From: a virus
Lineage: Duplodnaviria; Heunggongvirae; Uroviricota; Caudoviricetes
DNA length: 11,454 nucleotides
Virus record (IMG/VR): IMGVR_UViG_2585427747_000005
Strand: one strand, 5' to 3'
Shown here: positions 2,856-11,454 of the stretch, in pieces
Position numbering within the stretch: the first letter of the stretch is position 1
Layout of the letters: every line of letters begins with the position of its first letter
The notes under the pieces: generated by a model
Databases searched by the model: none
Told to the model about the DNA's origin: nothing
What the model saw: the letters and a program-made list of their open reading frames with translations, nothing else
Program-made: the position numbers and the translations under genes

Positions 2856-3141
2856 AAACCGCTTGCAAAAAATTATCACGGGGCTGTATGCTTCCCCCGT
2901 CGCCCACATGGCGACCGGGTTTGACAGCCTGAATACATCTGGCGGACAGCCGCCCACATCCGATAAGCGGTTTTTTTGTGTCCGTAAACCTACCCATACC
3001 CGCATTATGGCGGGGCGTAACGGGGGAGCCTTTGTGCTCGCTGGTTTCCAGATGACCAGTCTGTCAACCCTGTTACGTCTCGCCACCATGTTTGACAGCG
3101 TAGTAGCGAGACTCCTTAAAATTCATCTGGGAGCCTTTCAC

Positions 3142-9259: not shown

Positions 9260-9673
9260 ATGGCAACGAATGAAAGCATCATGACGCTACCGCTGGCGAG
9301 TAAATTTAAAGCCGAAGCGCGGGCAATGGCTGACAGAGGTTTATCAACCTACGAGGCCGTATATCAACTCAACAAACTGGAAGAGCAGGACAAGCCGCGC
9401 GCTGATGCGATTATGGCGCTTCATGAGCATAACGACTATCAGCCGCTGTTACGTGCAATGGCAAACGTGCCTTGTATCGATGTTGGTACGGCTAAAAGCA
9501 TCCTTAGCATGACCATAGAGCAGGAACGCCAGAAGGTTGCGCCGGAGCTTACCGCAGCCTTTGAAAACTTTATGGACATGCACAGCCCGCAAGCCGTTTC
9601 AGCTGGCATGGCATACGACGGCAGAAACCCGGGCGATGATGGCGACATCGAGCGCATACTGAAAACCATCTGA
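9260..9673 (+). CDS. Hypothetical protein, last gene of the head-module operon
   Basis: 137-aa ORF with an AGGGGG Shine-Dalgarno; acidic and helical-looking; no confident homolog recognised. Confidence 0.55.
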   Translation: MATNESIMTLPLASKFKAEARAMADRGLSTYEAVYQLNKLEEQDKPRADAIMALHEHNDYQPLLRAMANVPCIDVGTAKSILSMTIEQERQKVAPELTAAFENFMDMHSPQAVSAGMAYDGRNPGDDGDIERILKTI

Positions 9674-9679
9674 GACAAG

Positions 9680-9702
9680 GCCGGAGAAATCCGGCTTTTT
9701 TT
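9680..9702 (+). terminator. Rho-independent terminator
   Basis: GCCGGA-gaaa-TCCGGC followed by 7 T; near-identical to the hairpin at 7240-7255. Confidence 0.7.
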
Positions 9703-9770
9703 ACGGGTCCTTTCCGGCATATGGACCCGTTACGGGGCGGCGACCTCGCGGGTTTTCGCTATTTATGACG
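9703..9770 (+). other. cos: Lambda-type cos site (cosQ-like segment plus cosN GGGCGGCGACCT at 9735-9746)
   Basis: ACGGGTCCTTTCCGG...CCGTTACG|GGGCGGCGACCT|CGCGGGTTTTCGCTATTTATGA matches remembered lambda cos flanks, diverging only in the cosQ-cosN spacer. Confidence 0.8.
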
Positions 9771-9835: not shown

Positions 9836-10276
9836 ATGATTGATAAAGCTTGTTTTGTAAGTCAGCAGGAAATAGCTGAACATTTCAAGGTTAACAGAAC
9901 CACTATTCGCGCATGGACCAAACAGGGGATGCCGTATCTTAATGCGGATCGCGGAAAGTCTGGCGGTTATCACATCGGGCATACATTGCTTTGGTCTTCA
10001 GGTAAAAGCCGTCTTGAGGCCATCAGATATCACGTAGAAACCAGTGCGCTGGAAAAAATTATGTTTGCCAGGCTGCTTTCATCTGAGCGTGACGAGTACT
10101 CCAGTGAAGAAACAGAACATAGATTTGATGAAGGTTTACAGATTTACGGCTACTCACCGGAAGAAGTGAGCAAAGCGCGAAATAAAATGGCCGGCTTTCT
10201 GGCTGGGTGGCGTCATGCCGTAAGCGTTCGCCGTGCCAGCATGGAACAATCAGTCGTTACAGAACAGCAAAGTTAA
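9836..10276 (+). CDS. Terminase small subunit homolog (lambda Nu1-like wHTH); Rpp-like packaging-redirection candidate
   Basis: 146 aa; VSQQEIAEHFKVNRTTIRAWTKQGMPYL parallels lambda Nu1 KKQLADIFGASIRTIQNWQEQGMPVL; no large terminase gene in the window. Confidence 0.8.
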   Translation: MIDKACFVSQQEIAEHFKVNRTTIRAWTKQGMPYLNADRGKSGGYHIGHTLLWSSGKSRLEAIRYHVETSALEKIMFARLLSSERDEYSSEETEHRFDEGLQIYGYSPEEVSKARNKMAGFLAGWRHAVSVRRASMEQSVVTEQQS

Positions 10277-10306
10277 AAATCACTTTCTGTTACGCCATCA
10301 AATACG

Positions 10307-10460
10307 CAATACAACAACCACGTATTTTTTTAAAACTATTTGATTCAATTAGCATTTTTTTATTTTTAGCATCAAAAAAACACTATCAGGTTGTTGTATT
10401 GCTCTTTATTTTTACTTAGTTATCAAATGGATATGACAAACAATTAAACAACAACCTCCC
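10307..10460. repeat. cosB-like array: three ACAACAACC/GGTTGTTGT sites in an AT-rich segment
   Basis: CAATACAACAACC (10307-10319) and its exact inverted copy GGTTGTTGTATTG (10391-10403); third ACAACAACC at 10449-10457; lies between the terS-like stop and the inverted cosN. Confidence 0.45.
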
Positions 10461-10469
10461 TCTAAAAAA

Positions 10470-10537
10470 GCTCATAAATAGCGAAAAACCGCGAGGTCGC
10501 CGCCCCGTAACGGGCCATAATTCCAGGAAGGACCCGA
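10470..10537 (-). other. cos: Second cos copy in inverted orientation (cosN GGGCGGCGACCT on the minus strand, 10494-10505)
   Basis: Reverse complement reads CGGGTCCTTCCTGG...CCGTTACG|GGGCGGCGACCT|CGCGGTTTTTCGCTATTTATGAG, an imperfect inverted repeat of 9703-9770. Confidence 0.7.
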
Positions 10538-10569
10538 CGACACCAGACTATCAGAGCGATGGGGGCACA

Positions 10570-10851
10570 ATGACAGAAGCCGAACTACTGGGATTAATCC
10601 GCCGCGTTACCGGAATCAGCCAGCAGCATGACGAACAGGCCACGCAGCCGGACAGCGTGACCGCCGAAAATTACGCGCGTGTGGTTGCTGAGGTGATGCG
10701 CCGTGATGGTATCCAGCTTAATGATGTGGATATGCGCAACATACGGATCCGCGTTCTTGAAATGCTGGCCTACAATCGCCGCGTGGCACTGTATCGGGAA
10801 ACGGAGAAAATTACGTACCACTGGAAGAAGCCGGAGCGGTTACGGCGTTAA
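10570..10851 (+). CDS. Hypothetical protein
   Basis: 93-aa ORF, G-rich Shine-Dalgarno; no recognisable motif. Confidence 0.5.
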   Translation: MTEAELLGLIRRVTGISQQHDEQATQPDSVTAENYARVVAEVMRRDGIQLNDVDMRNIRIRVLEMLAYNRRVALYRETEKITYHWKKPERLRR

Positions 10852-10867
10852 CGAGTAGCGACATACC

Positions 10868-10902
10868 GTGACGGAGAGTGACAACCAGTGACACGCCGTG
10901 AC
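10868..10902. repeat. Four GTGAC motifs at exact 10-bp spacing
   Basis: GTGAC at 10868, 10878, 10888 and 10898 (cGTGACg, aGTGACa, aGTGACa, cGTGACa). Confidence 0.5.
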
Positions 10903-11221
10903 AAAAGACGGTTTAACCGTTAATTAAAAATTGACGGGATTTTATGCTTTCCGGACGACGTGACCAACGTCATTTTTTAGCGAAAAGTTCTGATTAAGGT
11001 CATTGTCTGAATGGTCATAATGACCACTCCTACAAAACAGGTAAAGCCCACCAGCCTGATTAACAGTTAACCGGAAAAAAAATCCGGTAGCCCCGTTATG
11101 GGGATCCCCATATCAACATTAACGCCCCTCATGAATTAGCGCGCTTCCCCCTGGAAAGATGACCCGCCTGTATATTTCTTGTGTCTATTTGTTCCACGTT
11201 GTTTCATACAGTGCACCGAAC

Positions 11222-11243
11222 GGTGTAGTCACTGGTGTAGTCA
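11222..11243. repeat. Tandem 10-bp direct repeat GGTGTAGTCA x2 near the right junction
   Basis: GGTGTAGTCA at 11222-11231 and 11234-11243; adjacent palindromes CACCG-aa-CGGTG (11213-11224) and TGGGGATCCCCA (11099-11110). Confidence 0.4.
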
Positions 11244-11307: not shown

Positions 11308-11454
11308 TTAGTTATATATAACAGCAATAAATAATGCGAGAATAAACGGCACGATGATCTCGGCGGCAAAACGGATACCGCAGAGAATAATGACCAGCAT
11401 TCCCAACATAATGACGATTTTTAGGCCATTGAGCGTGATGATCGGCTTTGCCAT
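11308..11454 (-). pseudogene. tqsA: 5' fragment of an AI-2E family transporter gene (tqsA/ydgG-like), interrupted after about 46 codons
   Basis: Minus-strand translation [45 protein letters not shown] matches my recollection of the E. coli TqsA N-terminus, then diverges (IYN, stop at 11308-11310). Confidence 0.55.

Follow-up and report, generated by a model that had tools for sequence, protein, structure and literature searches.

A 93-codon ORF between an inverted cos site and the att arm is a conserved terminal gene of enterobacterial int-alpA-pri satellites

The tqsA island and the described satellites

The prototype phage-inducible chromosomal island (PICI) EcCICFT073 carries a small gene, c1505 (WP_000133413.1; L002:11874-12155 among our loci), which follows rppA and an inverted cos site, cos2, and precedes the att arm. 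Every EcCICFT073 gene after ori has been cloned in pBAD18 (PMC6739421), where plasmid pJP2220 is listed as ‘pBAD18 c1505’, and the site needed for transfer is cos1, not cos2. A later preprint reported int, alpA and pri to be essential for induction and transfer, with AlpA as the excisionase. Among the capsid-forming PICIs (cf-PICIs), EcCIEDL933 is described in the cf-PICI paper as not blocking its helper phages, and in that paper mutation of a ‘hypothetical gene 1792’ reduced transfer.

The DNA analysed here, in the following called the window, comprises the whole 11,454 nucleotides of IMG/VR record IMGVR_UViG_2585427747_000005 and was identified as an EcCICFT073-type PICI inserted in tqsA. 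The gene order was int, alpA, icd-like, DUF4222, pri, ssb, gpE-like capsid, gpD-like decoration, scaffold-like, cos1, rpp, cos2 and the ORF under study, which is the order of the prototype; int, alpA, pri, the lambda-type cos1 and cos2, and rpp, all in the same order and direction, assign the element to this type. The query segment 10280-11300 was 100% identical to islands in several E. coli chromosomes, where tqsA is split by the island. The features from cos1 to the island end were the following.

9735-9751, plus strand: cosN of cos1, exact 17-mer GGGCGGCGACCTCGCGG; functional packaging site just upstream of rpp
9836-10276, plus strand: rpp (redirecting phage packaging), matched by RppC (PDB 6HLK, E=2.4e-31)
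10489-10505, minus strand: inverted lambda-type cosN of cos2, exact 17-mer GGGCGGCGACCTCGCGG
10561-10565, plus strand: GGGGG, a Shine-Dalgarno-like run read from the sequence, 4 nt before the ATG of the ORF
10570-10851, plus strand: 93-aa ORF, ATG at 10570, 93 codons, TAA at 10849-10851
10816-10848, plus strand: invariant C-terminal tail Y-H-W-K-K-P-E-R-L-R-R, codons 83-93
10858-10902, plus strand: five G(Y)GAC repeats at 10858, 10868, 10878, 10888 and 10898, in exact 10-bp spacing
10917-10979, plus strand: two hairpins resembling terminators, with a T run after the second
11048-11061, plus strand: start of the conserved att-arm segment CCACCAGCCTGATT, common to islands at different integration sites
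11222-11243, plus strand: two tandem GGTGTAGTCA repeats, putative integrase arm-type sites
11308-11454, minus strand: 5′ fragment of host tqsA, marking the island end

Both cos sites of the window correspond to cos1 and cos2 of EcCICFT073 as given in the supplement of PMC6739421, and in the shuffling control for cosN 0/200 shuffles gave three such matches. An earlier reading made from the letters of the window alone (the sequence-only reading) had placed an ORF at 10570-10851 between an inverted cos copy and an att arm. The ORF was found exactly there, the inverted copy was confirmed by the 17-mer on the minus strand, and the arm by the G(Y)GAC repeats, the CCACCAGCCTGATT segment, the GGTGTAGTCA repeats and the split tqsA. 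The upstream neighbour rpp is probably co-transcribed with the ORF; the rpp allele of the window occurred at only 123 places in E. coli, versus 2011 for the ORF.

The cosB side of the inverted cos2 bore R-site-like repeats that depended on the allele (window 10306-10457 versus L002:11660-11760). In the window, (C)AACAACC-type copies lay at 10306-10331, inverted at 10377-10402, and at 10448-10457; CFT073 had three CCGGACAT copies instead. The cosB version of the window cos2 occurred in no phage record, where only the cosQ-cosN part found any match, and cos2 may be a site for the terminase of another helper. At L009:5920-6000, half a cos2 (CCGCCGCCCCGTAACGGG...) was joined directly to the terS stop codon, a deletion end-point inside cosN that suggests rearrangements at the cos nick site.

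Other elements of the window were noted upstream. A strong intrinsic terminator (GCCGGAGAAATCCGGC then seven T; −19.1 kcal/mol, z = −3.2) sits at 9679-9702 between the scaffold-like gene and cos1, so that either rpp and the ORF would be transcribed separately or late transcription would need antitermination. The 137-aa ORF at 9260-9673, after the gpD-like gene, matched phrog_1999, gave a weaker match to head maturation protease profiles (phrog_53) in their C-terminal part, and may encode a scaffold-like (Nu3-type) protein; its EcCICFT073 equivalent is c1501, the site of the tetA marker insertion. Rfam models identified a C4 antisense RNA (72.6 bits, E=5.8e-13) and its a1/b1 target at 2886-2935 and 3003-3090, adjoining the icd-like ORFs, i.e. 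a P1/P7-type c4-icd immunity module within a PICI.

A real gene and its place in the islands

The product of the ORF was 100% identical to RefSeq entry WP_000133427.1, annotated as ‘hypothetical protein’. By blastn against E. coli complete genomes the ORF was present at 2011 places in 1567/5426 genomes (~29%), frequently in more than one copy and with up to six copies per genome. Its length alone is within chance, because the other 93-aa ORFs in the window overlap real genes on the wrong strand. The median dN/dS was ~0.23 (50 distinct nucleotide versions from 83 loci), and codon position 3 was more diverse than positions 1 and 2 along the entire ORF, tail included. Homology began exactly at the ATG, across islands with unrelated upstream genes, and ended at the stop codon, while frame and length were preserved even in the 44%-identical relatives from Salmonella and Citrobacter. 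On the strength of the dN/dS value, the third-position diversity and the limits of homology, the 93 codons encode a real small protein under purifying selection. The GGGGG run before the ATG was also kept in cos2-type islands.

It is barely conceivable that the ORF is spurious and conserved on account of overlapping cis-acting DNA (cosQ, att-arm sites). In many islands the stop codon does overlap an IHF-consensus box, and the original CFT073 annotation called a reverse-strand ORF, c1506, at the same place; but constraint of the codon-position kind runs throughout the frame and into the tail, the Salmonella copy retains reading frame and length, and the homology limits coincide with start and stop codons, so this explanation is effectively refuted already.

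For the distribution, 92 loci were gathered from E. coli RefSeq regions, IMG/VR contigs and Logan/NCBI contigs. The ORF was the last island ORF before the att arm in 92/92 loci, and was the terminal gene in at least six PICI architectures. The genes directly upstream were these.

Rpp, then inverted cos2; 76 nt from cosN to the ATG in all sampled islands with cos2
180-aa Nu1-family TerS, with or without cos2
DUF1441 protein, gap of 2 nt
Large terminase (TerL) of cf-PICIs, gap of 13 nt
Unannotated 125-aa ORF, in an island with a ClpP-capsid fusion
SSB, in a minimal island that has no packaging genes
175-aa HTH protein with a TerS-like N-terminus, in a Salmonella island; ORF at 44% identity
Uncharacterised 153-aa protein, in a Citrobacter island; ORF at 44% identity

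Being present in every sampled lineage, the minimal island included, and at 2011 places, the ORF behaves as a backbone gene. It is a conserved 3′-terminal backbone gene of enterobacterial int-alpA-pri satellites and not strain-specific cargo; the variable presence among related islands that would mark accessory cargo was not seen, the ORF being terminal throughout the 92 loci. The sequence-only reading had presented an unassigned ORF in the accessory position, a candidate cargo gene that lack of conservation across related islands would argue against. The location, the lack of a motif and the lack of an assignment still stand, and conservation proved very strong, down to the 44% relatives in Salmonella and Citrobacter, but cargo does not fit an invariant last gene. 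The ORF also marks the island 3′ end sharply, since homology sets in at its ATG and the att arm at its stop codon.

Two of the islands (L058, L074) appeared embedded in lambdoid prophage late (head) genes, judged by co-oriented downstream ORFs with unannotated products, and resembled the ‘helper-embedded satellites’ of bioRxiv 10.1101/2022.07.18.500453. The ORF was still the terminal island gene in both and would read into the helper late genes. That the ORF is the first-injected gene via cos2 was considered and rejected, since islands that lack cos2 keep the ORF and transfer requires cos1.

Compared with the closest relatives, c1505 of EcCICFT073 was 91% identical over 93 residues and, like the ORF, stood between the inverted cos2 that follows rppA and the att arm. 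The islands differ in the cosB-side repeats of cos2, in the IHF-box array that follows the stop codon in CFT073 and not in the window, and in the integration site, which is roxA/phoQ in EcCICFT073 versus tqsA here. This last difference exists despite similar integrases, those of the window island (1-1218) and of EcCICFT073 (L002:1431-2660) being 91% identical, with arm repeats in common. In EcCIEDL933-type cf-PICIs (WP_000133425.1, O157) the ortholog was 92% identical and likewise terminal, with the same conserved arm by phoQ; there it lies 13 nt after terL, with no lambda-type cos between. By a numbering inferred from the capsid as gene 1786, the cf-PICI ortholog is probably gene 1795. The same numbering set aside its identity with ‘hypothetical gene 1792’, which falls on a 60-aa ORF between HNH and terS.

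As a sequence feature the ORF is thus already known: its RefSeq entry is identical, its ortholog was cloned in 2019, and the element is of a known satellite kind. For the window itself the result is an ordinary one, a known conserved hypothetical gene in a known element. Literature searches for c1505 and the RefSeq accessions returned no discussion in print of a near-universal terminal gene.

The protein and the DNA behind its stop codon

The sole family match of the product was phrog_1561 (E=1.1e-56, residues 1-93 on profile positions 1-93 of 93), the function of which is unannotated. No match was found in Pfam, NCBIfam, PADLOC or the PDB (phmmer and profile searches), which agrees with the lack of a recognisable motif remarked upon in the sequence-only reading. 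Pfam scans of each family member with E-values up to 10 gave nothing consistent, and in PADLOC no defence protein, known or candidate, was matched at E-values up to 0.1. Among 1.84 billion cluster representatives, phmmer returned 38 matches, mostly fragments of the same family, with no distant characterised relative. Because tblastn of 50,697 phage records found nothing, the ORF is judged not to be phage-derived.

Two AlphaFold runs agreed on three helices, with pLDDT of 85-90 over residues 31-70. The fold was predicted to be a generic helical hairpin (helices at ~28-45 and 52-82), with conserved arginines along predicted helices 2 and 3. The N-terminal part was acidic and variable, and the aromatic-basic tail, Y-x-W-K-K-P-E-R-L-R-R across the family, was invariant. 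Diversity over the tail codons was 0.01 at the first two positions and 0.18 at the third. Constraint on the DNA itself by an overlapping IHF box was rejected as the source of the invariant tail because its synonymous sites vary; judged by these codon positions, the constraint acts on the protein.

The ORF and Rpp/TerS-like proteins (RppC, PDB 6HLK) are neighbours, probably in one transcription unit, and both are small satellite-specific proteins. They differ in that no similarity of sequence or fold was seen between them, in that the Nu1-type N-terminal HTH of Rpp and small terminases was absent from the ORF product and present in that of the upstream gene, and in that c1505 showed no RppA-like interference phenotype. 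With excisionases and recombination directionality factors (lambda Xis, TorI, AlpA/Vis) the ORF product shares small size, basic character and a location beside an att arm with IHF-consensus sites. The differences are that the product is predicted to be all-helical, the two AlphaFold models having three helices and no strands instead of the winged-helix/HTH fold of the Xis/AlpA/TorI type; that it gave no HTH or AlpA match in Pfam; and that it is apparently dispensable for transfer, AlpA filling the role in these islands.

Behind the stop codon, the G(Y)GAC repeats of the window begin 7 bp on, where the att arm seems to start. Their sequence is that of the GTCAC core of the arm-type repeats on the opposite strand, and ACCAGTGAC (10884-10892), once reverse-complemented, reproduces exactly a part of the arm-type repeat at 11228-11236. 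The array probably consists of inverted integrase arm-type or excisionase sites. The hairpins at 10917-10979 probably mark the end of the transcription unit. In the other islands the ORF was followed by 200-740 bp of non-coding DNA, the CCACCAGCCTGATT arm segment and two GGTGTAGTCA repeats, and no coding cargo stood between ORF and arm in the islands compared. Rfam gave no match at or after the ORF in the window and in the downstream region of one related island.

In most related islands the TAA of the ORF opens an array of 1-7 directly oriented units (L002:12153-12430, L008:6280-6720, L004:10259-10470), each made of a box, TAACnnGYTGATAT, and then a hairpin whose stem varies between units with compensatory changes. 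Read on the reverse strand, the box is the IHF consensus WATCARNNNNTTR. A stricter TAAC-box pattern gave 125 matches, 124 of them on one strand and all downstream of the ORF, and the density of the IHF consensus was 3.65 per kb downstream of the ORF versus 0.02-0.08 per kb upstream. Apart from a degenerate unit at 10913-10937, no such array was present in the window, and no GYGAC array in the other islands.

Possible roles of the terminal gene

Published experiments bear on the role through c1505. The primers of pJP2220 were located by eye at L002 11817-11837 and 12170-12190, so that the insert contains the whole c1505 ORF with its own ribosome-binding site. Expressed from pBAD18, c1505 did not reduce lambda plaques, whereas c1503 (rppA) did (PMC6739421). 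Lack of a phenotype on expression had been named in the sequence-only reading as evidence against its proposal, and this only published test, of the ortholog against lambda, was negative. In the strain list of the same paper the islands used in transfer work are ‘c1504-07::cat’, and the recombineering arms of that construct delete from the rppA stop codon to the conserved arm, including cos2 and c1505. From the strain table we infer that c1504-07::cat strains underlie the transfer assays of Figure 3, and the supplementary strain list suggests island transfer with lambda and phi80 in the absence of c1505.

The explanation to which we give slightly better than an even chance is a conserved backbone protein, encoded by the last cistron of a helper-induced unit, that would act in trans as a small adaptor. 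The ORF would probably be the last cistron of the late/packaging transcription unit induced by the helper, supported by the 2-13 nt gaps upstream and by the terminator-like hairpins occurring only after the ORF. Its product may then bind nucleic acid, or one host or helper partner common to all islands, through the basic-aromatic tail and an arginine-rich face, which would adjust the induced cycle under the conditions met in nature. In satellite P4, psu closes the late genes ahead of the P4 hotspot, int and att; the ORF may be likened to it by positional analogy only, as a terminal late satellite cistron beside an integration module.

Anti-phage defence or helper interference from the 3′ accessory position is quite improbable. 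PICIs are reported to bear immune systems at the 5′ or the 3′ end (PMC11364771), the ORF is a small gene of no assigned function at such an end, and the c1505 clone was challenged with lambda only. However, presence in all sampled island lineages is not the variability of a defence gene, PADLOC models gave no match, the 91%-identical c1505 left lambda plaques unreduced where rppA reduced them, and the EcCIEDL933-type cf-PICI has an ortholog and is reported to spare its helper phages. The tight operon position behind late genes likewise suggests expression only after induction. Also unlikely is a recombination directionality or architectural factor that would work with Int, IHF and AlpA on the att arm next to the ORF, in analogy to TorI of KplE1. 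The ORF stops 7 bp before the phased G(Y)GAC arm repeats, its stop codon lies within the first IHF-consensus box of the array in most related islands, these boxes are concentrated downstream (3.65 versus 0.02-0.08 per kb upstream), and the protein is small, with many conserved arginines. TorI is encoded at the prophage end opposite its integrase, and once the island is excised the ORF and int would flank attP in the same reading direction. Set against this, the island devoid of c1504-07 seems to be what was transferred in the published assays, AlpA is the described excisionase/regulator and int, alpA and pri are those reported essential, the predicted fold is all-helical with no winged helix, and the protein stays 85-100% identical while the downstream arm varies completely between IHF-box and GYGAC arrays.

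Nor do we find it probable that the product is a counter-defence or establishment factor, e.g. anti-restriction or anti-nuclease, though strong purifying selection on a gene apparently dispensable in laboratory transfer, its restriction to satellites (it is absent from 50,697 phage records) and its place on the first-entering end, were cos2 used for packaging, would be in keeping with such a role. The effect of such a factor would be confined to wild hosts and so go unseen in K-12-to-K-12 transfers. The argument from entry order fails where cos2 is missing, as in the cf-PICIs, with the ORF directly after terL, and in islands with cos1 only, and transfer needs cos1 rather than cos2. No known anti-defence protein resembled the product, and no promoter-like site was seen between cos2 and the ATG.

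Compared with the small adaptor favoured above, a more far-reaching form is possible but doubtful. The product would be a hitherto unrecognised, near-universal effector of E. coli, Salmonella and Citrobacter PICIs, its YxWKKPERLRR tail docking on one conserved target of the host or the lambdoid helper and thereby raising yield or establishment in natural hosts. Candidate targets include a nuclease, IHF at the nearby arm, and a factor of transcription or termination. If this were true, a natural-host effect on satellite yield or establishment would escape the standard K-12 assays with lambda and phi80.

The ORF is common to satellite lineages with quite different packaging strategies, and yet it has been without a name, a family annotation or a phenotype. 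Its status as backbone rather than cargo changes which tests are suitable, as phage challenge alone would miss the point, and makes it a reasonable target for work on PICI biology.
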